Below, one piece after another: positions 4,915 through 49,055 of a stretch of 64,000 bases of DNA. Numbering within the stretch: the stretch's first letter is position 1; each line of letters starts with the position of its first letter. A program made the translations under genes and the position numbers. Source of the stretch: Vulcanimicrobiota bacterium (GTDB lineage: Bacteria; Vulcanimicrobiota; Xenobia; Xenobiales; JADMJV01); NCBI GenBank assembly GCA_023447635.1, contig JAEXNA010000221.1, forward strand, positions 4,063-68,062, given 5' to 3'. The notes below the pieces were generated by a model. That model searched no databases. It saw only the letters and a program-made list of their open reading frames with translations, and was not told where the DNA came from.

Positions 4915-4971
4915 AGGCAACCCTTTTAGGCTCGGCCGATCCGCCGTCCTCCTGAAGCCCTTTCTCCACGG

Positions 4972-5469: not shown

Positions 5470-5516
5470 CGCACTCCCAGATAAAGACCGTTTCTGAACC
5501 TAACGCCCTTCCGCCC

Positions 5517-7925: not shown

Positions 7926-8024
7926 TTCAACAAGACTTATTCAAGGATGTACAAGACGTACACACCCTGGCATAAGCCAACACTAGCCCAACTCGTCTAA
8001 AAAGCCGCATCTTCGCCGACCACA

Positions 8025-11230: not shown

Positions 11231-12384
11231 TGAACCACCTTCTTCCCCAGGCGACGCCGGCCGACACCGCCACCGAGAACCTTCTCGCCGTACTGTCACG
11301 CCACGCCCCTGACCGCTCGTTCTCGTCCGCCGATTGGCGGGGGATAGAGCAGGCGGCTCGGCGCTATCGGGTAGCCGGGCTCACCCTCGAGCGGCTTCGC
11401 CGGCACGGCCTATCGGCCCCGGCCGAAATCGACGCCGCCCTGCGCGACGAAGGCCGCGCCCTGGCTGCTCGGGCCGCGGGCAACTGGTGGCTATTCGACG
11501 GGATAGCTGCCGCGCTCACCGCGGCGGACATCCCCTTCATCCGCCTCAAGGGGTCCCACCTGGCTCGCTGCGTCTACGAAAGCCCCAGCCACCGCTTCCA
11601 GCGCGATTTCGATATTCTGGTGCACAAAAAACATCTGAACCAAGCTCAGAGCCAGATCGAGGCCTTAGGGTTCTATCGCAGTCAGGATTTCGAAGGCTAC
11701 AACCTGACCTTCAAACGAGACGGCGTGCCTTTCAGCCTAGAGCTCCATTGGGACGTCCAGCGTCGGCCCTGGCTGTTCGACATAAAGGTCTCCGACCTGT
11801 GGCAACGAGCCGAGCCGGCTCCGGATGGCCAGGGACTGCGCCTTTCCCTGGAGGATGAGATCGCCTACCTTTGCCTGCACCTGTCCAAACATCGCTTTTG
11901 GAACGAAGTCATTCCGATGCTAGATATTTTAGAGCGGCTCCACGTCCAGGGAGAAAGAGTCTGCTACTCCTCTCTCAAGCGTCGGTTCGAAGATTGGCAC
12001 GCACGGAAACCCGCCGCGCTGGTCCTCTCGGTGCTCACGAAGCTTTTCCCTCGAGATACTCCGACCGAGCTTTCCCGGCTGCTCCCGCATCCTCCGTCGG
12101 CTCTCACGAACTACGCCTGCTGGCGTGTCAGCGCCCCGGACGATAGAAACTTAGAAGACCGCAAGCGCATGGTCCGAATCGCGACCTATCGCAAGCATCA
12201 GCGCCTTTGGTCCTCACTCCTGGACAGCGAACCAGGGAAGCCTCGGCGCTCTCGAGGAGAGAAAGTGGCACTGTTATTCGGCAAACTTGGGCGCCTGGGC
12301 CGCTCATTGACCCTGGCAGTTACCGGCGGCCGCCTCGAACGGACGCGCCTGTCGCTGGAAAAGGAGCTCTGCGAATGGTGCTAG
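11230..12384 (+). CDS. uncharacterised nucleotidyltransferase family protein (NTP_transf_5-like) of HprK-related cassettes
   Basis: TTG start in track. FDILVHKKHL (DxD-like) and a paralogue at 26961..28127 with GDLDLWL. Stop overlaps the kinase gene start by 10 nt. Confidence 0.5.
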   Translation: MNHLLPQATPADTATENLLAVLSRHAPDRSFSSADWRGIEQAARRYRVAGLTLERLRRHGLSAPAEIDAALRDEGRALAARAAGNWWLFDGIAAALTAADIPFIRLKGSHLARCVYESPSHRFQRDFDILVHKKHLNQAQSQIEALGFYRSQDFEGYNLTFKRDGVPFSLELHWDVQRRPWLFDIKVSDLWQRAEPAPDGQGLRLSLEDEIAYLCLHLSKHRFWNEVIPMLDILERLHVQGERVCYSSLKRRFEDWHARKPAALVLSVLTKLFPRDTPTELSRLLPHPPSALTNYACWRVSAPDDRNLEDRKRMVRIATYRKHQRLWSSLLDSEPGKPRRSRGEKVALLFGKLGRLGRSLTLAVTGGRLERTRLSLEKELCEWC

Positions 12385-13316
12385 TCACGCGTTCCACCTA
12401 TCGCGCCTTCGGGCGGAATATCTCCAGCGACCTCGACCTCCCCGAACTTCAGCCCTCCGAGGCGTCCCGGGCCTCGACCGACCTCACCATCAGCCTGGCC
12501 TCGCTCGGCGCCCCCGGGCCCCAGGCGGGCGAACCGGGGCTGCTTTACCCCTGCGGCCCCGACGCCTATCGCCTGGACGTGGCCGATGTCGGCAGCTACC
12601 TGATTCGGCAGAGCGGCCGGGAGATTCTGGTCGATCCGCTGCCCGGGGCAGCACCCGAAGTCGTCCGTATCTTTTTGCTCGGCTCGGCGCTGGGCACAGC
12701 GCTGCATCTTTCCGAAGGTCTGGCGCTGCACGCCAGCGCGGTCGAAATCGACGGTCGGGCCGTCCTTTTTGTGGGCGACTGCGGCGCCGGCAAATCGACC
12801 ACCGCCGCCGCCTTCGTCCAGCGCGGCTACCGAATGGTGGCCGACGACGTGGCCTATCTCACCCTCGAGTCGGGCCGCCCTCTGGTCCACCAGGGTGTGA
12901 AACGGATCAAGCTCTGGCAGACCTCGGTCGACGCCCTGGACCTGGAAGGGGCCGACCTGACGGGCGTGCACCCCGACTACCCTCAGCGTCGCTCGCTGGC
13001 CGTGGCCGACCGCCAGACCAGCGCGGTCCTGCTCGGCGCCGTCGTCGTCCTGACGCCCGGCCCGGAGAGGTCGGTTCGCCTCGAAAGGCTGCACGGATTA
13101 GCCGCGCTGTCGGCCCTGGTGCAGAACACCTATCGCCCCTCCTTTGTCGCCACCCTGGGGCAAGGCGCCGCCCATATGGCCAAGGTGGCCACCATGGCCC
13201 AGGGCCTGGCCGTCTACCGACTTCACCGCCCGGACCAGACCATGTCCATCGACCCCGTCGTCCAGGCCACCATCACCCAATTCAGACACAGCCCAGAAAA
13301 GCGAGGAACCCGATGA
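12375..13316 (+). CDS. HPr kinase/phosphorylase-related P-loop kinase (HprK-like RiPP kinase), cassette 1
   Basis: ATG 12375 preceded by AAGGAG. P-loop HASAVEIDGRAVLFVGDCGAGKSTTAAAF, typical of HprK C-terminal-domain homologues. Confidence 0.65.
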   Translation: MVLVTRSTYRAFGRNISSDLDLPELQPSEASRASTDLTISLASLGAPGPQAGEPGLLYPCGPDAYRLDVADVGSYLIRQSGREILVDPLPGAAPEVVRIFLLGSALGTALHLSEGLALHASAVEIDGRAVLFVGDCGAGKSTTAAAFVQRGYRMVADDVAYLTLESGRPLVHQGVKRIKLWQTSVDALDLEGADLTGVHPDYPQRRSLAVADRQTSAVLLGAVVVLTPGPERSVRLERLHGLAALSALVQNTYRPSFVATLGQGAAHMAKVATMAQGLAVYRLHRPDQTMSIDPVVQATITQFRHSPEKRGTR

Positions 13317-13591
13317 ACGCCACTGCCAACACCTTGACCTTGACCCGAACCGAAGTCCCCCGCTGCGACCTGGACGGCGAAACCGTCCTGTTCAGCCCGC
13401 TCGACGGCTCCTACTTCGGCCTCAACGCCGTCAGTTCGCGCATCTGGGACCTGCTGGAAACCCCCACCACCCTGACCGCCATCTGCGCAGCCCTGGGCAA
13501 AGAGTTCGATGTCGACCCCACCGTCTGCGAAGAACAGACCGTTGCCTTCCTCAGCCGCCTCGAAGCCGCCGGTCTTCTGCGCCGCGCCTAG
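13313..13591 (+). CDS. PqqD-family peptide chaperone (RiPP recognition element / lasso B1-like), cassette 1
   Basis: 92 aa; ...GETVLFSPLDGSYFGLNAVSSRIWDLLETPTTLTAICAAL...AFLSRLEAAGLL matches the PqqD/RRE pattern; start overlaps kinase stop (ATGA). Confidence 0.6.
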   Translation: MNATANTLTLTRTEVPRCDLDGETVLFSPLDGSYFGLNAVSSRIWDLLETPTTLTAICAALGKEFDVDPTVCEEQTVAFLSRLEAAGLLRRA

Positions 13592-13674
13592 CGCCGCACT
13601 CACCGCCTCAAAATCTCGAAACTCTCCGTGGAAAAAAGAAAGGAAACGCGCCGGACCCGGCGCTGGAAATAACC

Positions 13675-13752
13675 ATGAAACGCACCTGGATCACCCCCGA
13701 AATCACCAAACTCGAAATCAAAGAGACCGCCACTCACCCGATCGGCTCCTAG
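13675..13752 (+). CDS. candidate small peptide (25 aa) with lasso-leader-like motif, ends in Ser
   Basis: MKRTWITPEITKLEIKETATHPIGS. W-x-x-P-x-I resembles the YxxPxL leader motif; C-terminal Ser; only 6 residues after the putative T(-2)A site. Weak RBS. Confidence 0.2.
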   Translation: MKRTWITPEITKLEIKETATHPIGS

Positions 13753-23191: not shown

Positions 23192-23378
23192 GGCGCCCCC
23201 TCTTTGCGCGTAGATTCCCGAACACAGGGGCTCGCCTTCCTTTCACTGTAGGAATAGCCTTCGCTACGGTCCATATTCCGTGGACTCGCTGATTCTGGAG
23301 CGGAATAGTCTTTCTCAGGGACATACTTTGGGATTGAAAGGCAGGAGTCGGGTATACCATCCGAAACATCGTTGCCTG

Positions 23379-26048
23379 ATGCGAAACTACCAGAACCAAG
23401 CACGCAGATTACTCTGCCTCTTGGCTCTCCTTTTCCTTATTGGGGGATGCGGGGACAGCCAGAACTATGTTTTCACCGGGACGGTCATCGAGCCGCCCCC
23501 TACTCCGGGCACCATCCGTGTTAGCCTGGACGTAGCCGACGTCAACGCGCAGATCGTCCCCGAAGCGAATAGCTTCGACGTGACCCTGTACGCGGCCGAC
23601 CTGACCGAAGTTGCCGGGGTCGACGACAGCACCCAGCGCACTTACGACTTCACCAACCTGGCTGCGGGCAGCTACCTGATCCGGGTCGAAGCGTTCGACG
23701 CGGCGGATAGCCGGGTCGGCTACTTCGACCGGGTCGTGTTCTTCGACGGCACCAGCCAGACGCTGGTCTTCGACACCCTGCGCTACAGCACGGCGACACC
23801 TCCCGCCCCGGCCTTCCCTACCGCGACCACGCCGGACTTTCTGGCCTTCGCGTCCATCCCGGCCGAACTGGGCAGCGGACAGAACTTCAGCCTGACCGTA
23901 CTCGCCTTCAACGCGGACGGCAGTCGCGATACCGCCGCCACCGGAACGGTGACCCTGAGCGCTCTGGCCGGCACCTTCCAGTCGGCGCCGGCCTCCGTGG
24001 CCCTGAGCAACGGCAGCGCCACCTTCAGCAATCTGGCGCTGGCCATCACGCCCGGCCAGACCTTCGTGCAGTTCCGCGCCAGCGCCACGGGCTTTGACGC
24101 GGCAGACACTCCAGCCATCGATTTCACCAACATTCCCGTGCCCAGTGTGGCCGTGGTCTCGACCCCTAACGCCCCCGTGGTCGGTCAACCGTTCACCATC
24201 CAGGTAGAACTGCTCGACGCCGATGGCGACCGGGTCGTCACTGCCACCGACAACGTGACCATCGCCGTAGCCAGCGCTCCGGCGGGCGGCACTCTCAGCG
24301 GCACCGCTACCGTGGCGGCCGTGAACGGCCTGGCCACCTTCAGCAATCTCAGCGTGAACACCGCCGGCGCCTACACCTTCACCGTCAGCGCCCCCGGCTA
24401 CGCGGCCATCACCACGGCTCCCGTCAACGTGGTGGTCAACCCTAACGTGCTGGGCTTCATCGCCCCTCCGAACAACGTGGTGGTAGCCACCCCGTTCTCC
24501 ATCCAGGTCGAAGCTTTGAACGGCGCCGACCGCTCGACCGCCGTCGTGCCGGTCACCGTCGCCATCGCCTCCGGCCCCGCCGGTGCCACCCTGGGCGGCA
24601 CCACCACGGTCAACACCGTGGACGGCCTGGCTACCTTCAGCAACCTGACGGTAAGCGCGGCGGGCACCTATACCTTGGCGGCCTCGTCCCCGACCTTCGA
24701 TGGCGCCACCTCGCCCTCGTTCGTGGTCACCGCAACTCCGATTCCGCGCCTCGAGTTTGGCACGGCTCCGACCAACCTGTACAACGAAGACAACTTCACC
24801 CTCACCGTGAACGTTCTCGAGGGCAACGGAACTCCGGAAACCGACCCGGTCAGCGTCACTCTCGCTCTCTACAGCGGCCCGCAGGGCGGAACCCTATCCG
24901 GCACGACCACCGTAGTCAGCACGGGTGGCGTCGCCACCTTCAGCAACCTGCAGGTGAGTGAGCCGGGCAACTACGTTTTCAGCGCCGCCGCGACGTCGTA
25001 CCAGACCGTCACCTCGACCTCTCTGACCTTCCAGGAAAACTTCAACATCGTGGTCGGACATCTCAGCGCCGACCCGCTGTTCTCGAACCCTGCCCTGGGA
25101 ATCTTCCGTCTCAGCCAACTGGCCATGGGCGCCAACGACGTCGTTCCTGCAGCCCAGTTCGGCCCAGTCGGCAATACGGCCGGCGCTTACGACCTGGAAA
25201 TCAACGCTGACGGCAGCCTGATCTGGGTCACCGCCAACGAAAGCGACACCATCGAACTGTACGCCAACGTCGCTTCGGGCGGTATCACCGCCGCGATCAA
25301 AACCCTGACCACTGGCGCCGACCGCCTCTTCTATACCACCGCCTACAACGCCACCGACGACCTGCTGGTCGCTGACGTTTACGATGTCAATATGGCAACC
25401 ACCGACATCGTCATCTATGACGACGCCACGGCCACCGCCACCGTCAACCCCACCGGGACTCTTCTTGGGCTCGGCGACTTTGACGACAATGATGGCGACG
25501 AATACGACGCCTACGTCTATGGAATCGACTTTGACGAAACCCGTGGCTACCTGTACGTAGCCCAGGCGCACCTCAATATCGACTTCGATCCGGAAGCGAT
25601 CCGCCTTCTCCGCTTCAACGTGGCCGATCTTCCTACCGGCGGCGCTTCGGTGGCCTATCAGACGCTGAACCCTGTGCAGATCGACCTGACGACTTCGACG
25701 CCGTTCGTTCGCAACATCGACTATGTGCCCAGCCAGGACCGCCTCTACCTGACTGGGGAAGGTGGACTGCAGTTCCTCGATAGCGTCTCGACGCTGACCA
25801 CCACGGGAACCACGACGACGCTCAATTCTACCACCGTCCCTATGGTCAACACCTGGGACGTCGCCTACGATGTCCTTCATGACCGCCTGTACGTGACCGA
25901 CTTTGGTCAAAACCGCGTGCTGCTCTTCGAAGGGTCGTCCACCTGGACGGCAGCGACCACCACGGCAGAACCGGTGAGAACCCTCGGCAACCCCACCTCG
26001 ACTCTGACGGAGATGATCCAGCCCTCGGGCATCGTGATCTTCCCGTAG
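23379..26048 (+). CDS. large surface lipoprotein with tandem Ig-like (Big/invasin-like) domains and C-terminal beta-propeller-like region
   Basis: Start at internal ATG 23379: MRNYQNQARRLLCLLALLFLIGGCG lipobox; repeated ~90-aa units (...ATFSNL.V...G.YTFTVSAPGYAAITTAPVNVVV); Thr-rich C-terminus. Confidence 0.5.
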   Translation: MRNYQNQARRLLCLLALLFLIGGCGDSQNYVFTGTVIEPPPTPGTIRVSLDVADVNAQIVPEANSFDVTLYAADLTEVAGVDDSTQRTYDFTNLAAGSYLIRVEAFDAADSRVGYFDRVVFFDGTSQTLVFDTLRYSTATPPAPAFPTATTPDFLAFASIPAELGSGQNFSLTVLAFNADGSRDTAATGTVTLSALAGTFQSAPASVALSNGSATFSNLALAITPGQTFVQFRASATGFDAADTPAIDFTNIPVPSVAVVSTPNAPVVGQPFTIQVELLDADGDRVVTATDNVTIAVASAPAGGTLSGTATVAAVNGLATFSNLSVNTAGAYTFTVSAPGYAAITTAPVNVVVNPNVLGFIAPPNNVVVATPFSIQVEALNGADRSTAVVPVTVAIASGPAGATLGGTTTVNTVDGLATFSNLTVSAAGTYTLAASSPTFDGATSPSFVVTATPIPRLEFGTAPTNLYNEDNFTLTVNVLEGNGTPETDPVSVTLALYSGPQGGTLSGTTTVVSTGGVATFSNLQVSEPGNYVFSAAATSYQTVTSTSLTFQENFNIVVGHLSADPLFSNPALGIFRLSQLAMGANDVVPAAQFGPVGNTAGAYDLEINADGSLIWVTANESDTIELYANVASGGITAAIKTLTTGADRLFYTTAYNATDDLLVADVYDVNMATTDIVIYDDATATATVNPTGTLLGLGDFDDNDGDEYDAYVYGIDFDETRGYLYVAQAHLNIDFDPEAIRLLRFNVADLPTGGASVAYQTLNPVQIDLTTSTPFVRNIDYVPSQDRLYLTGEGGLQFLDSVSTLTTTGTTTTLNSTTVPMVNTWDVAYDVLHDRLYVTDFGQNRVLLFEGSSTWTAATTTAEPVRTLGNPTSTLTEMIQPSGIVIFP

Positions 26049-26109: not shown

Positions 26110-26961
26110 ATGAGTCTCGTCTCCGTCCTCATACCTTGCTACGGCCACCAGTCCACCCTGCCGCGGGCGCTGTTCTCGTTGGTCTTGCAAGACTTTGCCC
26201 AGTGGGAAGCCATTGTGGTCGACGACGGGTCCGAGCCCCCTATCGATCGGGAACGGCTCCCCTCCGACCCCCGAATCCGCCTGCTACGTCTGCCCACCAA
26301 TCAAGGGCGGGGCAAAGCCAGTCAGGTCGCTCTGCAAGCCTCGGTGGGGCGCTACGTAGCCTTTCTCGACGCCGACGACTGGTATCTGCCGGACAAACTT
26401 TCTCGGCAGGTGGCCTTTCTGGATTCCAACCCCGACGTCGACTGCGTTGCCGGAACCCTCGGCTGTGTCTCCCGAGACGGCGGGGACCTTCGCGAAATGC
26501 TCGGCCCCCGCCCCGGGATCCATCACCACACTCCGACCGGGTCCATCAGGCTTCCCTTCGCCGCCTGCCTGGTCCGCGGAAAAAGAGCTCGACAGGTGGG
26601 ATTCGACCCCGCCTTCCGGCGGGGCCAGGACCGCGACTTCCTTCACCGCCTGCTGGTCGGTCGCTCTTACGCCGTCGTACCCGGGATAGAATATGTCTAT
26701 CACACCGGGGTCAGCTTTGCCCTCAGTTCCGTCCAGGAAGGGCTGCGTTATCGACTGCAGTTTTATCGGCGCCACCTGCGGAACAACCCGGGCTGGGCCT
26801 TGCTCCAGATCGGGGCCACCGTGGCTCGGCTGGTCCTCTATCCTATCTTCCATCGGCTCGGACGGTGGCAAGGTCACGTCGAAAGAAACCTTCGCCCCGC
26901 GCCTACCGAGGTCCAACAGCAATACCGGGCAGCCCTGGCGGCCCTAGAGCGGCACTTGTGA
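26110..26961 (+). CDS. glycosyltransferase family 2
   Basis: VSVLIPCYG...VDDGS...FLDADD DxD-type GT-A motifs. Confidence 0.75.
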   Translation: MSLVSVLIPCYGHQSTLPRALFSLVLQDFAQWEAIVVDDGSEPPIDRERLPSDPRIRLLRLPTNQGRGKASQVALQASVGRYVAFLDADDWYLPDKLSRQVAFLDSNPDVDCVAGTLGCVSRDGGDLREMLGPRPGIHHHTPTGSIRLPFAACLVRGKRARQVGFDPAFRRGQDRDFLHRLLVGRSYAVVPGIEYVYHTGVSFALSSVQEGLRYRLQFYRRHLRNNPGWALLQIGATVARLVLYPIFHRLGRWQGHVERNLRPAPTEVQQQYRAALAALERHL

Positions 26962-28127
26962 TGCAGCCCGACCTGCCCTCCCTCGAGCGCCCCATCCTGG
27001 AACTCACCGGCCTGGAAGAAGACTCTCTTCACCTTCCCGAAGCCGTTTCCCAGCAAGGGTTGCTGCTACTCTGGTTACAAGGCACAGGCTTCCCGAGCTG
27101 GCCACTGCCGGCAGGGGCCCGCCAAGCAGCCCTGCTCCAACTGGCCACCTCAATGAAGCTTCAGCGGACCCTCGAGGACGTGGCCAATGTCTTGAACAGC
27201 TCCGCTATTCCGTTCTTGTGCTATAAGGGCCCGGCGCTTTCCCAGGCTGCCTACGGGTCGGCCCACCTGCGCCCCTCGGGCGACCTCGACCTGTGGCTTG
27301 ATCGTCGCGATATAGCGAGGGCTATCGGGGCGCTCGAAAGGCTGGACTTTTGGCCTCGTCGTCCTCATCCGCCCCTCGAGGTCCATCTGCGCTTCGCTTA
27401 TGAGTACGCTTTGGAACAGGCGGAAACCGGCGTCGTGCTCGAGCTTCACTGGCAAGTTCTGCCTCATCGCTACGGCGGCTCTGCGTCCTACTCCGCGGCT
27501 CTGGCCCGCGCCCACACCGTGCAACTCGAAGGCCAGCTCCTTCCCACCCTGTCGCTCGAGGACTCCCTCGTCATTCTGGCTGCTCACGGGGCGAAACATC
27601 TTTGGTACCGCCTGCTCTGGCTCTACGACCTGGCCGGTCTCCTCCAGGGGGCAAAGCCGGACTGGTCCCTGGTAGCCCAAATCGCCCGGAGAAGTGGGAA
27701 CCACACCCGGGTCAGCGTGGCACTTCTTCTGCTGCAGCGTATCTTCGAAAAGCCCCTTCCCCTAGAATGGCGAGTGAGCTGGAAGGCTCGGCGGCTAGCG
27801 GCTCTTCTTCTGCGGCTCAGATTTCTGCCCCAGAGTCAGCTCCTCGCTTATCTCATCTTGCTCGGGCTCGAAGACGGAATAGGGGGAAGCCTGCGCTCGC
27901 TCCTTAGCCTGGCGCTGCATCCCAGTATCGCTGACATCAGCTATCCTCAGCGACCTCTGCGGCCCCACGCTCTCTACTATGCCACTCGCCCCTGGCGATA
28001 TCTGATGTCGCGGCTAAAACGCCGTCCCGAAGGGTCAGAACCTGGTCGACCCGCTCCAGCCAGCCCGCCTGATGGCTCACCACCAGAACGATCATCTGAC
28101 CGCGGTACGCCTCCAACGCCTGCATGA
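26961..28127 (+). CDS. uncharacterised nucleotidyltransferase family protein (paralogue of 11230..12384), cassette 2
   Basis: ATG 26961 overlaps GT2 stop (TGATG). GDLDLWLDRRD motif. The C-terminal ~60 aa are low-complexity and overlap the convergent ABC gene. Confidence 0.5.
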   Translation: MQPDLPSLERPILELTGLEEDSLHLPEAVSQQGLLLLWLQGTGFPSWPLPAGARQAALLQLATSMKLQRTLEDVANVLNSSAIPFLCYKGPALSQAAYGSAHLRPSGDLDLWLDRRDIARAIGALERLDFWPRRPHPPLEVHLRFAYEYALEQAETGVVLELHWQVLPHRYGGSASYSAALARAHTVQLEGQLLPTLSLEDSLVILAAHGAKHLWYRLLWLYDLAGLLQGAKPDWSLVAQIARRSGNHTRVSVALLLLQRIFEKPLPLEWRVSWKARRLAALLLRLRFLPQSQLLAYLILLGLEDGIGGSLRSLLSLALHPSIADISYPQRPLRPHALYYATRPWRYLMSRLKRRPEGSEPGRPAPASPPDGSPPERSSDRGTPPTPA

Positions 28128-29679
28128 CCAGGCGCTCCGAAGCCAGGTCCAGGTTCGCGGTAGGCTCATCGAGCACCAGAAGGCGCGGCTTCCTCAGGAG
28201 CGCTCGAACCAGTCCCAGTCGCTGACGCTCGCCGATGGAAAAATCCTGACCGGCGTCCAACAGAACCGTATCCAGGCCTTCAGGCATCGCTCGGCATCGC
28301 TCTTCGAGCCCCAGCAGCCTCAGCTGGCGCCAGGCCTCCTCATCATCCCGATCTCCCTGATAGCCCAGCCACAGATTATTCCGTAGCGAGGTGCCGAATA
28401 AGAAAGCTTGCTGGGGCACGTAGGCTAGCGATCGACGCCACTCCTTACCTTTCGGAAAGACCTGCTCTCCCATCACGACCCGTCCGGAATCCGGCGAGAG
28501 TAGGCCCAGTAAGATATCTGTCAGCGTCGACTTCCCCGATCCCGACGGTCCGCTCAGGCAGCTCCAGCTGCCGCTAGGTAGCTGGAAGGCGACTCGGGAC
28601 AAGCCGCGTCCGCTGGGATAGCGAAAGTCGACGTCCTGGACTAGCACTCCATCCCCGTCCCCCCAGGAGATATGAAGCGGGGGCCCTTCCTGAACTTGAT
28701 GGCCCTCGAGCTCCCGGAGAAGCCGCTCGACTTTCAGCACAGCGGGCGCCAGGAAGAAAAGTTGGGTCAGCAGCGACGCCAACGACTGCGCTGCCGGGGT
28801 CAACCTGGCCATGGCATAAAGCAGCACCAGAAGCTCGGCGGCCGGCATATGGCGCACCGTTACCGCCCACCAGACGAATCCGGCCAGGACCAGCAGCGAA
28901 GCCACCCGGGTCCAGGCGCTCTGGCCGGCCTCGTCCCTGGCAACCTCGATAGCAACCTGCCGGCGCCGGTCGGTCAGGCGGCACAACTCGGCCAGGTAAA
29001 CCTCTTCAGCGCCGCAGCTCCGAAACGATTTGTAGCCGACCAGAAAGTTCGCCAGCTGGTGCGCCTGCTCCTGATAGACGGTGTCGAACTCCTCTCCCTG
29101 GTGGGTCGCTCGGGCCAGCCTTCTCATCGTGAGCCGAAGGAGAACGGCTCCGAGGGGCACCAGAACCAGAAAGACCGGTCCCACCAGAACCGAGGCTGTC
29201 ACCAGGTACACCGCAGCAAGAGTGGCTTGGCCCAGGCACGCCAGCAGAACTTGTGCCCCGCCAGACACGCGCTCGATATCGACCTGCATCGCCTGAACCA
29301 GGTCGCTGGAGCGATGCCGCAGCAGCCATTCCCATTGCACGCCCCTTAGCGCTACCGTCAATCGTAGGACCAGCCGGTGAACCGTAGTTTCCCGAAAATC
29401 CACCGCAACCAGGCTCTGATAGCGAACCCACCAGGACTGCAGCAGCCCCAGGAGCAGAAATAAGCCCAGCGCCTGGCCCAAGCCAAGCCCTGCTGCGACC
29501 GGGGGATTCGAAGAAACGCCCGCAGCTTCCAGCAGCGGTAAAAGCAGCGCCACGAACCCCAGGGTCGTGACGAAGCCGCTCAGGGTCAACGCCAGGATGT
29601 GCCACAGGCGGGCTCCATGCAGGGCGAAAAAGAACCGCCAGACCGCGCGTATCGTAGTTCGACCGCTCAAAAGTTCCAA
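27937..29679 (-). CDS. ABC transporter, fused permease/ATP-binding (lasso D / McjD-like exporter)
   Basis: 6-TM N-terminal half; Walker A LSGPSGSGKST, signature LSIGERQRLGLVRAL, Walker B LLVLDEPT. Start set to TTG ~29679/29670, overlapping the B2 stop; the track's 30090 start overlaps B2. Confidence 0.7.
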   Translation of the reverse strand: MELLSGRTTIRAVWRFFFALHGARLWHILALTLSGFVTTLGFVALLLPLLEAAGVSSNPPVAAGLGLGQALGLFLLLGLLQSWWVRYQSLVAVDFRETTVHRLVLRLTVALRGVQWEWLLRHRSSDLVQAMQVDIERVSGGAQVLLACLGQATLAAVYLVTASVLVGPVFLVLVPLGAVLLRLTMRRLARATHQGEEFDTVYQEQAHQLANFLVGYKSFRSCGAEEVYLAELCRLTDRRRQVAIEVARDEAGQSAWTRVASLLVLAGFVWWAVTVRHMPAAELLVLLYAMARLTPAAQSLASLLTQLFFLAPAVLKVERLLRELEGHQVQEGPPLHISWGDGDGVLVQDVDFRYPSGRGLSRVAFQLPSGSWSCLSGPSGSGKSTLTDILLGLLSPDSGRVVMGEQVFPKGKEWRRSLAYVPQQAFLFGTSLRNNLWLGYQGDRDDEEAWRQLRLLGLEERCRAMPEGLDTVLLDAGQDFSIGERQRLGLVRALLRKPRLLVLDEPTANLDLASERLVMQALEAYRGQMIVLVVSHQAGWLERVDQVLTLRDGVLAATSDIARGEWHSRERGAAEVAEDS

Positions 29680-30075
29680 AACGTCAGCTCCTGAAAGGCG
29701 GCCTGCTCCGCCCGACCCACCACCGCCCGACCATGAACCTCCAACCAGGCGTGGGCTCCAAACGCCTCCCCCGCTTTGACACCCAGGACCAAACGACAGG
29801 GGATGGCACGAACGCGCAAGAGCAGCGCGGCGGTCAGGGCCCGTTCCAGACATCGGGGCGACCAGGGGGCCCATCGTCCCGCCCGCTCTGTTGCCCGTCC
29901 AACCCGATCGGCCAGTTGCAGCAAGGCGGGGCTTAGACCCGTGGCGGCTCTCTCGGGGACCGTCAGGCGACGGACCTGCGACTGCCAGGGCGTGGCTCGG
30001 AACCACAGGCACACACCAAGTCCGACGAGGAACGCCTCGAAGGTCAAAAGTAGGTCCGAAAGAGAGGGCAGCCGA
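29667..30075 (-). CDS. lasso-peptide B2-like transglutaminase-fold protease, cassette 2
   Basis: RCLERALTAALLLRVRAIPCRLVLGVKAGEAFGAHAWLEVHGRAVVG; probable GTG start ~30075 (VSRLPSLSDLLLTFEAF...). Divergent from the cyclase gene. Confidence 0.55.
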
Positions 30076-30161
30076 GACACTTCTCTCCATTTGTCCTTGC
30101 CCGAGACTTCACCCTTCCCTCCGGGCAGGCGTCGGCATAGGGACAGCCCGAATCGGCGCTT

Positions 30162-31871
30162 ATGTCCGCGATCTTCGCTGTCCTCTGCCAGGGGGCGCCT
30201 CTTGGCGACGGTGACCTGCAAAGAGTTCTCGCCGCTGTTCGGCCCGGGCTATCGCCCTGGACCAGCGAGGGCCAGGTCTATCATCGTCGGCTGCCTGGTG
30301 GCTTCCTGGTCTCGACCAGGCCGATCGAAGGGCGGGACTTTGTCTACAGCGGGGCGCTTTCTGAAGCGGCTCTGGCCACCCTTGCCGACCTGGATCCGCG
30401 GCAAACAGAGAAGGAACTGGAACGGATCGATGGCGAGTTCGCCTGGGTCAAAGTCTGCCCGACATCGGGCCGGGCCGCTATCGCTCGCGACCGGTTCGGT
30501 GTCTGCCCGCTCTATTGGGCTCGGCTTGACCAGAACGTGGTCGTGTCGTCGAGCCTGACGGCCCTCAGCAGTGTATCCGGGGTGTCGCGCCAGCTCGACG
30601 ACTCGTCGGTTCTCGATTTCCTGATCTCCGGTATGCAGCGGCGCACGGAAGCCACGATATTCCGGGACATCTGGCGATTTCCGCCCGCATTCTACGCTAC
30701 CGTCGACAGCGACCAGGTTCGGCTTGCTCGCTACTGGCAGCTCCCGATCGAAGAGCCGCTCTGGTCTCTAACGGCACAGCAGTGCCGGGAGCAGCTCCTC
30801 GAAAGGCTGGACCGCGCGGTGACACGCCAGGCTTGCCCCCAGCACACCGGCCTCATGCTCAGCGGCGGTCTCGACTCGGCGCTGATCGCCGCCTCCCTGA
30901 CCGGCCATCTGGGTCCGCGCCAGCTCAGCCGGAAGACGACCGCCTTTACTCTGGGTTATCACGGCGACCGGGAAGTCCAACTAGCCGCCCTCAGCGCTAG
31001 CACGCTGGGGCTGGCCCACCTCGTGACCCTTGACGATTTCCAAGCCAGACCAGGGGGGGAAGCGCGGCGCTCTACCCCGCAGCCCGACCCGGAACCTTAC
31101 AGAGCCGCCCAGCAAAAGATCAACCGAGCCGTCCAGGAGCAGAATATTTCGGTAGTCCTGATGGGCGAAGACGGCGACGCCTTGTTCCGCCCCCCCACCG
31201 TCCTCGAACTGCTGCTCTCGGCCGGACCTATCAGGACAGCGGTCGAGGCAATCCGCAACGCGCGTCACCCCTGGCGGCAACGCCCCGATCTTGGTTTGCG
31301 ACGCCAGCTCCGAAGGTCGGCCCTAACGCCCGCGCCGACCCCGCCTTTCCCCCGATGGATACGGCCCGAGGCGCCCACTTTGGACTCGGCCCTGGCCCGC
31401 TGGGAATCCGCCTGGCAAGACCCAGTCGTGCACCCCTGGCGACCGCGCAGCTACGCCGACCTGACGGACTCGGCCGCGCTCGGCAACTTCTTCGAAAGCC
31501 TCTCGCCAGAATGGACCGGGACCCCGACAACCTACAAGCTCCCTCTGTTCGATCTCGACCTGGTCCAGTGGGCCCTGCGCCTACCGCCCTGGCCGTGGTG
31601 CCTGGACAAACGGCTCCTTCGCGAAATTCTCCGGCCCATTCTGCCATCAGCGATCGTCGACCGAGGCAAAACGGGATTCACCGTCGCCTCGAGCCAATGG
31701 TCTCCGGCGCCCGAAATCCTCGAGGCCCTTCATCCCGGCCTAAACCGCTGGGTCGACCTAGCAGGGATAAGAAAGGAGAAAAACAATCTCATGCATGACG
31801 ACAGCCTCGAGGTTCGCTATCGAATCCTGGGATTATCGCGATGGATGAAAGATATCGAGGGAGCACGATGA
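30162..31871 (+). CDS. asparagine-synthetase-like lasso cyclase (lasso C)
   Basis: N-terminal MSAIFAVL (Ntn-amidotransferase-like start without the catalytic Cys, as in lasso cyclases); PP-loop LMLSGGLDSALIAASL. Confidence 0.7.
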   Translation: MSAIFAVLCQGAPLGDGDLQRVLAAVRPGLSPWTSEGQVYHRRLPGGFLVSTRPIEGRDFVYSGALSEAALATLADLDPRQTEKELERIDGEFAWVKVCPTSGRAAIARDRFGVCPLYWARLDQNVVVSSSLTALSSVSGVSRQLDDSSVLDFLISGMQRRTEATIFRDIWRFPPAFYATVDSDQVRLARYWQLPIEEPLWSLTAQQCREQLLERLDRAVTRQACPQHTGLMLSGGLDSALIAASLTGHLGPRQLSRKTTAFTLGYHGDREVQLAALSASTLGLAHLVTLDDFQARPGGEARRSTPQPDPEPYRAAQQKINRAVQEQNISVVLMGEDGDALFRPPTVLELLLSAGPIRTAVEAIRNARHPWRQRPDLGLRRQLRRSALTPAPTPPFPRWIRPEAPTLDSALARWESAWQDPVVHPWRPRSYADLTDSAALGNFFESLSPEWTGTPTTYKLPLFDLDLVQWALRLPPWPWCLDKRLLREILRPILPSAIVDRGKTGFTVASSQWSPAPEILEALHPGLNRWVDLAGIRKEKNNLMHDDSLEVRYRILGLSRWMKDIEGAR

Positions 31872-31999
31872 CCGACCCTAACTACAAAAAACCCGTCCTC
31901 AAAGCCTACGGGAGCCTCAAAGAGCAGACTCTGGCCGTACGAAACGGTGTCGGCATCCGCGACAGCTCGAAGGGCAACCCGAACAACAAAACCGGGTAA
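31868..31999 (+). CDS. candidate lasso-peptide precursor (43 aa)
   Basis: MTDPNYKKPVLKAYGSLKEQTLAVRNGVGIRDSSKGNPNNKTG. Leader matches Y-x2-P-x-L-x3-G-x5-T-x exactly (Y6,P9,L11,G15,T21). Strong RBS GAGGGAG 4 nt upstream; start overlaps cyclase stop (ATGA). Confidence 0.45.
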   Translation: MTDPNYKKPVLKAYGSLKEQTLAVRNGVGIRDSSKGNPNNKTG

Positions 32000-32008
32000 A
32001 CCCGCGAC

Positions 32009-32983
32009 TTGCATCACTATTCCGTCCGCGACTACCTCGCGATGCTGGCCGACCAGCCGCGCTGGGACGCGCATCTTAAGGCCCTTTCCCAGGCTCTCCA
32101 ACCGGGCATGCAGGTAGTCGAACTCGGGTCGGGCCTCAGCACCCTGGCCGTCGCAGCGCTACGCCAGGGCGCTGCTTTGGTGCACTGCATCGAACCCAAC
32201 AACGTGATCCATACGGCCAGGCAACTCGTTGCCGGACTGGGCCTGTCGGATCGCGTCGTCTTTCACCAGAAGCTGTCCCAGGACGTCTCGCTCCCAGAGC
32301 GGGCCGATCTGATTATCGGCGACACTCGTGGTATTACGCCGCTCTACGAAAGCCATCTCAGAATCATGATCGATGTCCGAGAGCGGCTGCTCAAACCGGG
32401 GGGCGCCCTGATCCCGGGACGGGACCGCCTCTGGGCCGCCCCCATCGCCAGCCCTCCCCTCTGGGCGGACGCCACCGGAATCCTCAGCAGGCTGCCGAGG
32501 CAGTTTGGCCTGGAGGGACTTGCCCGGCATACCTGTTCCAAGCCGGTTCGCATCGGTCCAGAGTACCCAGTTCAGATGCTGGCCTCTCCTTGTCCGTGGT
32601 CGGACATCGACTACCGCACCGTCACCACCGCCGACGTCAGCGGCCGTTGCCTGTTCCGGGCCAACCAGGCGGGGGAATGTCACGGGTTCGCCGTCTGGTT
32701 CTCCGCCGAACTGCTTCCCGGCATCGGATACGACAACTCACCCGACCGTCACGACAGCATCTACGGGCAACTCTACTTTCCGCTGGGCGAAGCCGTGTCG
32801 CTTCAGGCCGATGACGAAGTCGCGCTCGAAATCAAAGCCAACCCGCTGGGCCAGGGCTATTTCTGGCGCTGGGCAACCACAGTCTGCCGAAACGGAAATA
32901 CGGTGCTACGGCTGAACCAGCAAAGCATGATTGAAAACCTTCCGCCGCTTCGAGAGCTAAATCTCGAGCATCGAGAACAATAA
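32009..32983 (+). CDS. SAM-dependent methyltransferase (class I, PRMT-like)
   Basis: VVELGSGLSTLAVAA glycine-rich SAM motif, followed by acidic motif-II region. Confidence 0.55.
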   Translation: MHHYSVRDYLAMLADQPRWDAHLKALSQALQPGMQVVELGSGLSTLAVAALRQGAALVHCIEPNNVIHTARQLVAGLGLSDRVVFHQKLSQDVSLPERADLIIGDTRGITPLYESHLRIMIDVRERLLKPGGALIPGRDRLWAAPIASPPLWADATGILSRLPRQFGLEGLARHTCSKPVRIGPEYPVQMLASPCPWSDIDYRTVTTADVSGRCLFRANQAGECHGFAVWFSAELLPGIGYDNSPDRHDSIYGQLYFPLGEAVSLQADDEVALEIKANPLGQGYFWRWATTVCRNGNTVLRLNQQSMIENLPPLRELNLEHREQ

Positions 32984-32996
32984 GGAACAGCACTGC

Positions 32997-33257
32997 ATGA
33001 CACTCAAGCCGCATCCTGACGTCGTGGTTCAGGAGGTCCAGGACGAACTGGTCCTCCTGCACCTGGGAACGGAGCAGTATTTCGGACTGGAAAAGGTCGG
33101 CATGCTCATCTGGGGCCTTCTGGGCCAGGGACTGCAGCGCGATGCCATTCTGGATCATCTGGCCCAGGAATATTCCGTCCCCAGACCCCAACTTGCCGAC
33201 GACCTGGACGACCTGTTGCAAAGCCTGCAGCAGCGCGGGTTGCTTCAGCAGGTCTGA
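32997..33257 (+). CDS. PqqD-family peptide chaperone (RRE / lasso B1), cassette 2
   Basis: 86 aa; VVQEVQDELVLLHLGTEQYFGLEKVGMLIWGLL...LQQRGLL. Confidence 0.6.
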   Translation: MTLKPHPDVVVQEVQDELVLLHLGTEQYFGLEKVGMLIWGLLGQGLQRDAILDHLAQEYSVPRPQLADDLDDLLQSLQQRGLLQQV

Positions 33258-33263
33258 ACGCCG

Positions 33264-34175
33264 GTGCCGCGCTACGATCTGCTCGGGCTTTCCGTGGAAA
33301 GCTCGCGGGCCTTCCCCGACTTCCCGCAGGCAGAATCCGCAGCGCCCCCGGACCTCCGATTACACTGGGCTCCCTCTCTCGCCTCGCTGGACCAGTTTTA
33401 CCGCGAGCGCCGGCCCGACCCATCGGCCCCCGCGACCCTGACCCTAACGAAAAGCGACCACGCGTACCATTTCGCTTACGAAGACGGAACGCGATTTCTC
33501 TTATCGGGGGATGGGGCGCAAGTCAGCGCCGTCATCGCTCCCCATCAGTCTATCGAAGACACCCTGACCTATTTTACCGGCCCCATTATGGGATTTATCC
33601 TGGCCCTTCGCGGAATATTCTGCCTGCACGCCAGCGCCGTTCTGCTCGACGGCGCGGCGGTCGCCTTTGTCGGGCCCGCCGGCGCGGGCAAATCTACCAC
33701 GGCAGCCCTGCTAAACCAGGCAGGTCTGCCCGTCATCTCTGATGACGCGCTCCCATGCCTGCCCTGCGACGGCCAGCTCCAGGTTCATTCCAGCTACCCC
33801 AGAGTGCGTCTTTGGGAAGACTCCGTTTTCAAACTCAAAGGCACACCCGACGCTTTGCCCCTGCTCACGCCAAACTGGTCGAAGCGCTATCTGCCGTTAG
33901 ACGAAGCGGGCTTCGCCTGCGGCCTTTTCCCGCTTCAGCTGATCGTCTTTCTGGGGGCCGACCCCCCCTCATTACCCACGGTGCTGCGGTTGGCTCACTC
34001 GACCTACATCGGCGACCTGCTCCCCCCAGAACGCGCCGCCCAGCATTTTGCCCACATGGCCGAACTCGCCCGGTCGGTTCCCGTAGTAAATTTCGACCGC
34101 CCGCAGAATAGCCAGGAATACCTTGCCCTACTGCGCAACACCCTTAACGCAACGCGTAGAGTGACGATGGGTTAG
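33264..34175 (+). CDS. HPr kinase/phosphorylase-related P-loop kinase, cassette 2
   Basis: CLHASAVLLDGAAVAFVGPAGAGKSTTAALL P-loop; paralogue of 12375..13316. Confidence 0.65.
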   Translation: MPRYDLLGLSVESSRAFPDFPQAESAAPPDLRLHWAPSLASLDQFYRERRPDPSAPATLTLTKSDHAYHFAYEDGTRFLLSGDGAQVSAVIAPHQSIEDTLTYFTGPIMGFILALRGIFCLHASAVLLDGAAVAFVGPAGAGKSTTAALLNQAGLPVISDDALPCLPCDGQLQVHSSYPRVRLWEDSVFKLKGTPDALPLLTPNWSKRYLPLDEAGFACGLFPLQLIVFLGADPPSLPTVLRLAHSTYIGDLLPPERAAQHFAHMAELARSVPVVNFDRPQNSQEYLALLRNTLNATRRVTMG

Positions 34176-34200: not shown

Positions 34201-35004
34201 ATGGGCCTTGAAGACCGCTTGATACTCCTAAAAGAGCCGAACTCGCCGGTGGCAGAAAGCTACCGCTCGCTTCGTGCCGCCCTGTCGCGCAACCTGACCG
34301 AAGGCAAACGCACCTTCACCGTCGTCAGCTCCTGGGGCGGCGAAGGCAAGTCGATGGTCTCAGCCAACCTGGCCGTGGCGTTTTCCCAGCTTCTGATGGA
34401 CGTCGTGCTGGTCGACGGCGACCTTCGTCGCCCGACCATCAGCCGTGTCTTCGAGTGCGAAGACAAGCCGGGGCTGCTCAACCTTCTGCAAAAGGGTGGT
34501 CTCGCTGGCGAACACGTCCTTCCCACCGGCATCCCCCGCCTCAGCATCCTGCCGGCCGGCTCCTCTATGGAGAACCCCGGCGACTTGCTGGGCAAAGGCG
34601 GCTTCAAACAGCTCCTGGCCGATCTCCGCGGCTCGGCTGACCGCTGTGTGGTGATCGACACCTCTCCGCTGTCCGCCTGCAGCGACGCCTTGCTGATGGC
34701 GCCGCATTCCGATGGGGCCATTATGGTGGTCAACCCGGAAAAGTGGCAGGGCGAAGCCGAAGCGCACTTTGCTCAGGACCTGGAAGACCATGGAGTCGCC
34801 ATATTTGGGGCAGTCCTGAACAACGCCGACGCCAAGGAGCAGACTTCCACCTACGGAAGCGGCTACGGCTACGGCTACGGATACGGATATGGGTACGGAT
34901 ACGGGTCCCCTTCGCGTCCCGGATCGCCCACCGCGGCCGAAGCGACGGTCGAAGCCAAGGGGTCGTCCTGGAGAGACTTCTTCAAACGGGATAAGCAGAA
35001 ATAG
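34201..35004 (+). CDS. BY-kinase (CpsD/CapB-type tyrosine autokinase ATPase) with C-terminal (Y-G)n tyrosine cluster
   Basis: Walker A-like SSWGGEGKSMVSANLA, A' VLVDGDLRRP, Walker B CVVIDTSP; tail YGSGYGYGYGYGYGYGYG. Confidence 0.75.
   Translation: MGLEDRLILLKEPNSPVAESYRSLRAALSRNLTEGKRTFTVVSSWGGEGKSMVSANLAVAFSQLLMDVVLVDGDLRRPTISRVFECEDKPGLLNLLQKGGLAGEHVLPTGIPRLSILPAGSSMENPGDLLGKGGFKQLLADLRGSADRCVVIDTSPLSACSDALLMAPHSDGAIMVVNPEKWQGEAEAHFAQDLEDHGVAIFGAVLNNADAKEQTSTYGSGYGYGYGYGYGYGYGSPSRPGSPTAAEATVEAKGSSWRDFFKRDKQK
34852..34906 (+). repeat. in-frame hexanucleotide (GGCTAC/GGATAC)n microsatellite encoding the (GY)n tail of the BY-kinase
   Basis: tacggaagcggctacggctacggctacggatacggatatgggtacggatacggg. 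Confidence 0.6.
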
Positions 35005-47527: not shown

Positions 47528-48847
47528 TTAGGTGGGAACCTGACTCACAGCACGACCTACACTGTGGTATTGAAAGCCCCGCTCAGCCATGACTTTCGGC
47601 TCAAACAAGTTCCTTCCATCGATAATCAATGGTGCCCTCAACTCCGTACGAACCCTCTCAAAGCTAGGACGCCTAAATTCATTCCATTCTGTCATAATCA
47701 GCAGGGCGTCCGAACCCTTACACGCTTCATAGCTATCCGAGCAAAGGGTGACGCTGCTCCCATACAGTCGGCGAAAGTTGTCCATTGCCTTGGGATCAAA
47801 TGCCCGCACCTCTCCCCCCCTCTCGAGAAGACCATCTATCAAGCGAAGGGCGGGGGCTTCTCTTAAGTCATCCGTTCGCGGCTTAAAGGCGAGTCCCCAC
47901 ACCGAAAAGATCCGCCCAGTGAGGTCCTCTCCGAAGCATGAGACGATCTTGTTCCAGTAGAATTCGAACTGTTTCCTGTTCCCGTCCCAAGCACTTTCCA
48001 CCACCGGCATGTCGCAGCGTGCTTGTTTGGCCGTCCGAAGGAGAGCCCTTACATCCTTCGGCAAGCAGGACCCACCAAACCCCACACCAGGAAAAAGGAA
48101 ACTGCCCCCAATTCTTGGGTCTCGTGAAATCCCAGTCCTCACCTGGTCCACATCAGCACCAACAGCTTCACACAATCTCCCGATCTCGTTTATGAAGCTG
48201 ATCTTCACTGCTAGGAATGCATTCGCGGCGTACTTTGTCATTTCAGCCGAGGGGACATCCATCTCAATCACACGATTGCCCGTTCTCATAAACGGGGCGT
48301 AGAGATCCCTCATTTCATCACGAGCCCTTGAATCTGAAGTTCCGATGACCACGCGATCCGGCTTCAAGAAATCATTGACGGCGTCTCCCTGTTTTAGAAA
48401 CTCCGGATTCGAAACGACCGAAAAGGCGTGGGAAGTCGCACCCGCAATGACTTCAGTCAATTTCGCTCCTGTCCCGACCGGAACCGTACTTTTAGTCGCT
48501 ATTATCCGATACCCGTCCATGGACTCCGCGATCTCTTTCGCCACCGCAAATACACCGGAGAGGTCTGCGGCACCGTCTGCGTCTGCCGGGGTACCGACAG
48601 CGATGAAGCAGATCTTTGAATTCTTTACAGCAGCCTTGAGGTCCCCTGTAAAAGAGAGCCTGCCTTCTCGCACGTTGCTCTCGACGATCTCCTCTAAGCC
48701 AGGCTCATAGAAAGGCATCACCCCGTCCTTCAAGGCAGCTATCCGCCCTGTATCCCTATCGCAACATCTTACAACATTACCCATTTCTGCCAGGCACGCC
48801 CCCGTAACTAAACCAACATACCCTGTGCCGACGATACAAATGTCCAT
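47528..48847 (-). CDS. ugd: UDP-glucose 6-dehydrogenase
   Basis: Start at internal ATG (MDICIVGTGYVGLVTGACLAEMG); catalytic-region GGSCLPKD motif. Confidence 0.8.
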   Translation of the reverse strand: MDICIVGTGYVGLVTGACLAEMGNVVRCCDRDTGRIAALKDGVMPFYEPGLEEIVESNVREGRLSFTGDLKAAVKNSKICFIAVGTPADADGAADLSGVFAVAKEIAESMDGYRIIATKSTVPVGTGAKLTEVIAGATSHAFSVVSNPEFLKQGDAVNDFLKPDRVVIGTSDSRARDEMRDLYAPFMRTGNRVIEMDVPSAEMTKYAANAFLAVKISFINEIGRLCEAVGADVDQVRTGISRDPRIGGSFLFPGVGFGGSCLPKDVRALLRTAKQARCDMPVVESAWDGNRKQFEFYWNKIVSCFGEDLTGRIFSVWGLAFKPRTDDLREAPALRLIDGLLERGGEVRAFDPKAMDNFRRLYGSSVTLCSDSYEACKGSDALLIMTEWNEFRRPSFERVRTELRAPLIIDGRNLFEPKVMAERGFQYHSVGRAVSQVPT

Positions 48848-49055
48848 TCCGGGGGTTGTGAAATAGGCCCAGGAATTACCTTCCTTGAAGAGATGATTAC
48901 CATCCTTGCTAGGAGCGACCCGAACAATGCGTCTGAGCTCGGTTGCTAGCTTGGCGGGTCTGCAGGAAATGTCGAGAACTGCGCCCACATCTACACGAAG
49001 AAATGAGCTTCAAACTTGGCTTTAGCTAAGCCCATCACTCCACGTAGGTTTTCGA

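Follow-up and report, generated by a model that had tools for sequence, protein, structure and literature searches.

A lasso-peptide-type gene cluster with a kinase and a PRMT-fold methyltransferase in a Vulcanimicrobiota bacterium, and a multi-phylum family of precursors with the predicted ring acceptor at core position 10

We examined a 64,000-bp stretch of contig JAEXNA010000221.1 from a Vulcanimicrobiota bacterium, referred to here as the window, and identified at 26.9–34.2 kb an intact lasso-peptide cluster, that is, a cluster for a ribosomally synthesised and post-translationally modified peptide (RiPP). It comprises genes for a precursor (A), an asparagine-synthetase-like cyclase (C), a leader peptidase (B2), a PqqD-type RiPP recognition element (RRE; B1), an ATP-binding cassette (ABC) exporter (D), an HprK-related kinase (K), an NTP_transf_5 nucleotidyltransferase (N) and an S-adenosylmethionine (SAM)-dependent methyltransferase with the fold of protein arginine methyltransferases (PRMTs; M); all eight were intact according to the open reading frame (ORF) list, Pfam and NCBIfam. 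The sole acidic residue of the precursor core is at position 10, and this spacing recurred in 36 unique cores of the wider family, with the first core positions in the same register as in relatives that have the acceptor at position 9. With modest confidence, we read the cluster as a functional member of a lasso subfamily that combines a kinase with a PRMT-fold methyltransferase, usually together with an NTP_transf_5 protein, and that would make a tailored product with a ring of ten residues. The lasso reading, the choice of precursor and the set of tailoring genes had been proposed earlier from the bare letters of the window (the original prediction), as had the contiguity of the listed lasso genes, and domain searches and synteny agreed with them.

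The precursor MTDPNYKKPVLKAYGSLKEQTLAVRNGVGIRDSSKGNPNNKTG starts at an ATG (31868) that overlaps the TGA of the cyclase (ATGA) and is preceded, 5 nt upstream, by GAGGGAG, exactly as in the original description of a 43-aa ORF at the cyclase stop with a strong ribosome-binding site and a lasso-type leader. Its leader, MTDPNYKKPVLKAYGSLKEQTL, is an exact match to YxxPxLx3Gx5Tx (Y6, P9, L11, G15, T21 and L22), with Thr at position −2 relative to the core AVRNGVGIRDSSKGNPNNKTG. As had been noted, Asp10 is the only acidic residue of this core, so that no acceptor is present at position 7, 8 or 9; the predicted isopeptide would join Ala23 (core position 1) to Asp32 (core position 10). The core carries two arginines (R3 and R9), and neither aromatic residues nor Cys occur in its tail, SSKGNPNNKTG. 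The core ends in NKTG, with the Lys-Thr motif at core positions 19–20; the lack of a terminal Ser was thus correctly predicted, and the feature conserved in its place is a Lys-Thr-x C-terminus.

Only two close homologues of the cyclase, with 63% and 45% identity, were found among 5.8 billion proteins, the remaining ones being about 30% identical or below. Their loci, L001 (63%) and L002 (45%), are syntenic with the window in the order GT2, N, D, (B2), C, small ORF, M, B1 and K, where GT2 is a glycosyltransferase gene, and the same tyrosine-kinase genes for exopolysaccharide (EPS) follow K on its 3′ side. The small ORF reads ...EQTL followed by the core AVRNGVGVRDGSKGPITNKTG in L001, and ...HQTR followed by VIENGVGVRDNPSKGPVTNKTG in L002; used as a query, the precursor peptide recovered no sequence other than its own and that of L001. 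Asp10 is retained in both cores, as are the motif Ser-Lys-Gly and, at the C-terminus, Asn-Lys-Thr-Gly. Glu3 of the L002 core was considered as an acceptor and rejected, as it is too near the N-terminus and not conserved. The precursor ORFs of the window and L001 differ synonymously at 13 codons and non-synonymously at 5, and this synonymous excess, together with the conservation, marks the ORF as a genuine gene subject to purifying selection.

An alignment of the methyltransferases was then the basis for finding related loci. It gave 63 loci in GTDB, with one genome per species, and 30 further loci in a metagenome scan (93 in total). The GTDB loci belong to Gemmatimonadota, Acidobacteriota, Methylomirabilota, Chloroflexota, Verrucomicrobiota, Deinococcota and others, including Chromatiaceae, other Proteobacteria and a Synechococcus, and in all 63 the identity to M of the window was 45% or less. 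Where sufficient flanking sequence remained, most loci were lasso clusters in which K lies beside M. The clusters of cyclases P0007 and P0008 (about 30% identity) have the order B1-B2-C-A-M-K-N and contain members of the same three families of tailoring genes. Precursors were searched with the strict leader regular expression in six frames over 1.10 Mb, which gave 67 matches, all but about four of them adjacent to a gene for a cyclase, a kinase or a methyltransferase. The YxxPxLx3Gx5Tx leader was found in about 65 family precursors, with one or two precursors per locus in most loci, and the distant cores with Asp10 as their only acidic residue include AIGNMSAKTDGG..., SVGMKGTTSDGG... and AISNTSHNADGG.... 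A different, canonical precursor in homologous clusters had been named as a point that would speak against the original prediction; the homologues encode the same non-canonical type, and the D10 spacing is kept both in the two close relatives and in distant clusters whose cyclases are about 30% identical. No description of a lasso subfamily with a kinase and a PRMT-fold methyltransferase was found in the searchable literature.

According to the position of the acceptor, the unique cores fell into three classes. The 12 cores with the acceptor at position 8, mostly Glu, typically start with GG or SG, end in Lys-Arg-Pro and are of gammaproteobacterial and cyanobacterial origin. The acceptor is at position 9 in 19 cores and at position 10 in 36 (29 from genomes and 7 from metagenomes), and these two classes are alike in having Thr at −2, an acceptor Asp followed by Gly-Gly, and a C-terminal [KR]-Thr, which lies within the last five residues in 28/29 class-10 and 13/15 class-9 cores. 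Among the 29 class-10 cores from genomes, 28 are free of any further Asp or Glu at positions 7–9, and only two end in Ser. The tails contain about 26% Gly, and Phe, Trp and Tyr are absent from 26/29 class-10 tails. When the cyclases were arranged in a neighbour-joining tree, class 8 formed a separate clade, whereas classes 9 and 10 were intermixed and consistent within clades, which suggests that the ring size has switched several times and is heritable.

An only acceptor at position 10 implies, as the original prediction had pointed out, either a ring of ten residues or a shifted cleavage, and this choice now extends to about 36 cores. If the leader were cut one residue later (after Thr-x-x), Val2 and Asp10 of the window would close a canonical nine-residue ring, within the range of 7–9 residues of all characterised natural rings. 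Most class-10 cores have Val, Ile or Leu at position 2, and an aliphatic N-terminus is allowed, since there are lasso peptides that begin with Leu (stlassin, in a table of PMC12427821). However, Thr at −2 followed by one residue is a conserved feature of B2 recognition and is present in every member. Moreover, the first residues of the two classes are in register: class-10 cores start with Ala, Ser or Thr and class-9 cores with one of these or with Gly or Asn; at position 2, class-10 cores mostly have Val, Ile or Leu and class-9 cores Thr, Val or Leu; and Gly is at position 3 in 15/28 class-10 and 7/15 class-9 cores. The extra residue of class 10 lies between position 6 and the Asp; NVGSKGAVDGGG (L016, class 9) and SVGSSGSVADGGH (L026, class 10), for instance, differ by one added residue directly before the Asp. 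The indel is therefore placed inside the ring and not at the cleavage site, whereas a shifted cleavage would put the extra residue at the N-terminus and Gly at position 4. A shift would also give the D9 relatives of the same clade eight-residue rings, which is equally a switch of ring size. We thus regard the shifted cleavage as unlikely, and the comparison favours an Ala1–Asp10 macrolactam. Since 36 cores from several phyla share the spacing, ten-residue lasso rings probably occur in nature.

The gene identities of the core enzymes agreed with a lasso cluster. A retained Cys nucleophile in the AsnB-like protein had been named beforehand as a sign against it; the cyclase begins with MSAIF, with Ser and not Cys as residue 2, and the lasso reading stands on this point. 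It has the PP-loop motif SGGLDS at residue 234, and its score against the asparagine synthetase model TIGR01536 was 121.5 bits, below the cut-off of 267. As its match to the lasso cyclase model NF033535 was weak and below the cut-off, C is a divergent member of the lasso cyclases. The start of B2 had originally been placed at 30075, a position not in frame; a GTG at 30080, preceded by GGAGAG as a ribosome-binding site, is the best candidate, and the resulting 137 aa equal the length of the L001 orthologue. The B2 motifs, Cys (CL) and AHAW.E, are conserved across 28 family members. B1 matched the lasso PqqD models of NCBIfam below their cut-offs, and D matched CydC, MsbA and HepA-like NCBIfam models, the gene caller yielding an identical product of 580 aa.

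K has the motif His122, Lys143 and Asp160-Asp161, in which the His, the Lys and Asp161 are invariant in 45 sequences, and the alignment showed invariant H, G, K and D columns. Such a His-Lys-Asp-Asp motif was described for lasso kinases (PMC9266682). The assignment to HprK-related kinases in the original prediction was weak for the protein of the window alone (E = 3.9e-5 against TIGR04352, HprK_rel_A) and solid for the family, of which 44/45 members matched TIGR04352, 30/45 Hpr_kinase_C (PF07475) and 25/45 hpr-ser; the best PDB match of the family profile was HprK (E = 0.007). The hydroxyl group conserved in the family cores is that of the penultimate Thr after Lys, not that of a C-terminal Ser. 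HPr is phosphorylated at Ser46, which follows Lys45. N was present in 19/27 class-10, 9/14 class-9 and 0/9 class-8 loci (28/50 of the precursor-bearing loci overall, roughly 60%); it co-occurs with the [KR]-Thr C-terminus, and class-8 loci have neither. PsmN, which belongs to the same family as N, puts a hexose on the phospho-Ser of pseudomycoidin (PMC8498205).

M had been called a SAM methyltransferase, which was right as far as it went, and can more specifically be described as PRMT-fold. It matched PRMT6 over residues 8–276, covering both PRMT domains (phmmer, E = 4.2e-20). Its AlphaFold2 model (pLDDT 93.2, pTM 0.89) has a Rossmann SAM-binding domain and a beta-barrel, as in the PRMT fold, and the top 50 Foldseek matches in the PDB were all PRMT6, PRMT2 or PRMT1 (TM 0.74–0.79, E about 1e-26). 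M thus resembles the eukaryotic type I PRMTs in its whole fold, in the SAM-binding motif I and in the post-I acidic residue. At E ≤ 1e-30, its family has 661 representatives at 50% identity. The lasso methyltransferases StspM, which is of the lassomycin type, acts on the C-terminal carboxyl and works on the linear precursor (PMC8498205), and LihM, an aspartimide-forming PIMT homologue, are also SAM-dependent; M, however, looks like another lineage, set apart by its Pfam matches (PRMT_C, PrmA), and a PCMT match was marginal (E = 0.0097) and seen in 1/9 M homologues. We found no relevant literature on PRMT-type methyltransferases in lasso clusters, and the matches listed in a search for lasso peptides with methyl-Lys, methyl-Arg or phospho-Thr were all unrelated work.

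Most M homologues are about 380 aa long and carry an additional C-terminal domain of about 55 aa (for example, L016 8124–9290 and L009 9977–11134) with the consensus P.L..EG....IL...DG..SL.EIA..L...FP..F......AL..V..LS.KYS, which is absent from the 324-aa M of the window. This domain had no match in Pfam. A fused PqqD/RRE was considered and rejected, as hhalign against the B1 proteins of the family gave a probability of 2.6%.

From the gene set and the characterised relatives, we infer the following chemical steps, sites of modification and possible threading. B1 would bind the 43-aa precursor through the YxxPxL leader, as inferred from its family, and K would phosphorylate Thr20 of the Lys-Thr-x motif on the linear precursor, by analogy with the paeninodin-type kinases. 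N could then decorate the phosphate with a sugar or a nucleotide, as PsmN suggests, and M may methylate a side chain, perhaps the nitrogen of the Lys or Arg beside the Thr, which is the sole conserved cationic residue of the cores. B2 would cleave behind Thr21-Leu22, the cyclase would adenylate Asp10 and link it to the alpha-amine of Ala1, giving a ring one residue above the characterised natural maximum, and the ABC transporter would export the product. The tail could be unthreaded, held by side chains such as those of Lys or Asn, or bulked by modifications at the C-terminus. Tentatively, and with considerable doubt, we suggest that ten-residue-ring lassos are widespread and are locked not by aromatic residues but by an enzymatically added group on the Lys-Thr, be it phosphate, a sugar or nucleotide, or methyl groups set by a PRMT-fold enzyme retargeted from Arg.

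Several observations weigh against a functional cluster with a tailored ten-residue ring. Reviews from 2021 to June 2026 list natural lasso rings of 7, 8 and 9 residues only (PMC8498205, PMC13352647, PMC12427821, PMC9266682), and a 2025 review considers rings of more than nine residues too loose and flexible to hold the tail (PMC12427821); our literature search for a natural 10-residue ring found only an engineered fusilassin ring and statements of nine as the natural maximum. The score of the cyclase against the lasso cyclase model NF033535 was 92 bits, far under the cut-off of 525. In L002, every cluster gene other than B2 is present, and no B2 gene was found between D and C (7910–8001) or elsewhere on the 13.7-kb contig (tblastn E > 0.8). 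Known lasso kinases phosphorylate the C-terminal Ser of the linear precursor, which is absent here, so that the kinase partner of M cannot use the Ser known from paeninodin. M differs from the eukaryotic PRMTs in its active-site loops and in being dedicated to a RiPP cluster: the first position of the double-E loop, whose two Glu are invariant in PRMTs and hold the guanidinium group, is Asp and not Glu (D50 and E3 of 53 sequences), in a near-invariant D-x-R-G; the second is Glu in the window and not conserved in the family (G18, Q10, E8 and D6 of 53); and the THW loop is replaced by S-I-Y-G-Q in the window and x-[IVL]-Y-G-x in the family. Many family cores, such as those of L004 and L005, are without any Arg. 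For these diverged loops and Arg-free cores, we call M PRMT-fold and not a PRMT.

The fold of the product is a further point of doubt, as class-10 tails without aromatic residues, that of the window included, would hardly give a stable threaded fold unless modified. It is therefore possible, though we doubt it, that the Ala1–Asp10 isopeptide forms and that the product is an unthreaded branched-cyclic peptide, or one that unthreads easily, as the Gly-rich tails and the flexibility ascribed to rings above nine residues (PMC12427821) would suggest; however, the conservation of B1, B2 and C across phyla suggests selection for an enzymatic product, and the conserved tailoring near the C-terminus could add bulk. 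A product that is not cyclised at all, but linear, phosphorylated and otherwise modified like the linear polyphosphorylated peptides (LPPs) found alongside paeninodin-type clusters in polysaccharide loci, appears quite improbable. The LPP clusters of capsule loci share the HprK kinase, the NTP transferase, the RRE and an MsbA-like exporter (PMC13381572), the window itself is an EPS locus with a second, cyclase-less gene set, and one family locus (L031) combines K, M, B1 and B2 without a cyclase, and its two precursors have no acceptor residue. Yet the cyclase of the window is intact, translationally coupled to the precursor and has kept SGGLDS, and the cyclase goes together with an invariant Asp whose spacing from the cleavage site is fixed in about 55 cores, the very Asp that the cyclase-less L031 lacks. 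That the precursor is a chance ORF, or the cluster a decaying remnant, we consider highly improbable: high-GC DNA is rich in spurious ORFs and the promoter and terminator signals were at chance level, but the synonymous excess, the recurrence of its place and motif across dozens of loci and the eight intact genes argue otherwise. The cyclised and tailored ten-residue-ring product thus remains the reading we favour, on comparative evidence that agrees over about 90 loci, and it is chemically feasible in so far as an engineered fusilassin ring of this size was accepted; according to the passages on it in PMC8498205 and PMC13352647, the fusilassin cyclase takes rings of 7–10 residues in vitro.

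Among the known systems, the paeninodin and pseudomycoidin clusters of Bacillota (PadeK, ThcoK, PsmK and PsmN) resemble the cluster in the split B1/B2, the cyclase, the ABC exporter, the HprK-related kinase with His-Lys-Asp-Asp, the NTP_transf_5 protein and the YxxPxL...T-x leader. The family of the window differs from them in its Lys-Thr-x C-terminus without a terminal Ser, in the acceptor at position 10 instead of 7–9, in pairing a PRMT-fold methyltransferase with the kinase, and in its Gram-negative and uncultured-phylum hosts. In the fusilassin/fuscanodin variants, as far as they are covered in PMC8498205 and PMC13352647, a lasso cyclase likewise closes a 10-residue macrolactam, but on an engineered in vitro substrate of a cyclase whose natural ring has nine residues, whereas the spacing of the present family is natural and found in about 36 precursors. 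The LPP clusters and the HPr-rel-A system of NCBIfam share with the cluster an HprK-like kinase, an NTP transferase, a PqqD/RRE and an ABC exporter in polysaccharide loci (PMC13381572; TIGR04352, TIGR04353), and are without a cyclase, whereas the window cluster has one and an acceptor Asp; kinase/NTP-transferase RiPP clusters within polysaccharide loci have a precedent in Bacillota (PMC13381572).

Lasso scaffolds are prized for a small ring that mechanically traps the tail, and textbooks and reviews define this ring as having 7–9 residues. The usual mining heuristics do so as well, and the RODEO precursor rule is said to expect the acceptor at 7–9. If the present reading is right, a position-10 family in several phyla would extend the natural range of ring sizes upwards, and could account for a poor scoring of such clusters under standard precursor rules. 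It would also raise the question of how a Gly-rich, non-aromatic tail stays in the larger ring, if it is retained. Besides, the family offers a bacterial methyltransferase with the PRMT fold that is dedicated to a RiPP, with about 660 representatives and a diverged active site.

The features of the window are collected in Table 1. The convergent N and D genes overlap at their 3′ ends by 191 nt (27937–28127), and an overlap is also present in L001 (191 nt) and L002 (119 nt); thus, it seems real and not an artefact of ORF calling. The TGA of the GT2 gene and the ATG of N overlap by 1 nt (TGATG), and this gene may be part of either the lasso cluster or the EPS locus around it. Scans for promoters and terminators over 25.8–35.2 kb showed nothing above chance, and no RNA families were found in the window by Rfam.

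Table 1. Annotated features of the window, in order of position
Feature	Position	Strand	Evidence
Exosortase-CAAX protease fusion	3352–5304		
Wzy-like ligase with TPR repeats	5304–7925		
B2-like peptidase, second set	10781–11299	−	NF033537, 80 bits
NTP_transf_5, second set	11230–12384	+	
HprK-related kinase, second set	12207–13316	+	
PqqD/RRE, second set	13313–13591	+	
25-aa ORF, MKRTWITPEITKLEIKETATHPIGS	13675–13752	+	WxxPxI RRE-binding-type motif, C-terminal Ser
922-aa ORF	23280–26048		
GT2 glycosyltransferase	26110–26961	+	PF00535, 91 bits; same place in L001 and L002
N, NTP_transf_5, "uncharacterised nucleotidyltransferase"	26961–28127	+	PF14907, 143 bits, E = 1.5e-41
D, ABC exporter, fused transmembrane and ATP-binding domains	27937–29679	−	PF00005 and PF00664
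B2, transglutaminase-like leader peptidase, 137 aa	29667–30080	−	NF033537 lasso_biosyn_B2, 74.7 bits (cut-off 33)
C, asparagine-synthetase-like lasso cyclase	30162–31871	+	PF00733, 83.6 bits; GATase_7
A, 43-aa precursor	31868–31999	+	Leader motif; orthologues in L001 and L002
M, PRMT-fold SAM-dependent methyltransferase, 324 aa	32009–32983	+	PRMT6, E = 4.2e-20
B1, PqqD-type RiPP recognition element	32997–33257	+	PF05402, 62.2 bits (cut-off 23.4)
K, HprK-related kinase (P-loop protein)	33264–34175	+	TIGR04352, E = 3.9e-5; His-Lys-Asp-Asp motif
Tyrosine autokinase	34201–35004		
Ugd	47528–48988		
AT3-SGNH acyltransferase	49056–50924		

The whole window (1–64000) is an exosortase/EPS locus, which also contains several glycosyltransferases. 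The GC content, about 0.63, is lowered to about 0.52 in the part from 38 to 52 kb, and this points to a mosaic origin. A housekeeping-like UDP-glucose dehydrogenase had its best named matches, at 60–63% identity, in metagenome-assembled genomes of Armatimonadetes and Vampirovibrionales, and for the cluster proteins no named close relatives were found. Immediately upstream of the GT2 gene lies an ORF of 922 aa, a neighbour also present in L001 and L002; its translation looks like a secreted protein in which Ig-like segments are repeated and the C-terminal part is rich in Thr. A second, related gene set without a cyclase was found at 10781–13752; it resembles the HPr-rel-A system or the LPP clusters and appears closer to that type than the main cluster is.

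Two further observations were made in the family loci. In L031 (5017–10975), from a metagenome-assembled genome labelled Bifidobacterium, three K-like genes are accompanied by M, B1 and B2, with no cyclase, and by two precursors with lasso-type leaders whose cores, QLAPPGLPSNAQ and QDKGKGKSGT, have no acidic acceptor; this may be a system for linear peptides modified by a kinase and a methyltransferase. Beside the K-M cluster in L036 (8268–8420, minus strand) and L048 (7837–7989, minus strand), a second, unrelated lasso-type precursor was identified, with a D8 acceptor and two Cys, GGSSANYDFANLNNSTCNTSSPLCWAPIPNPRS.

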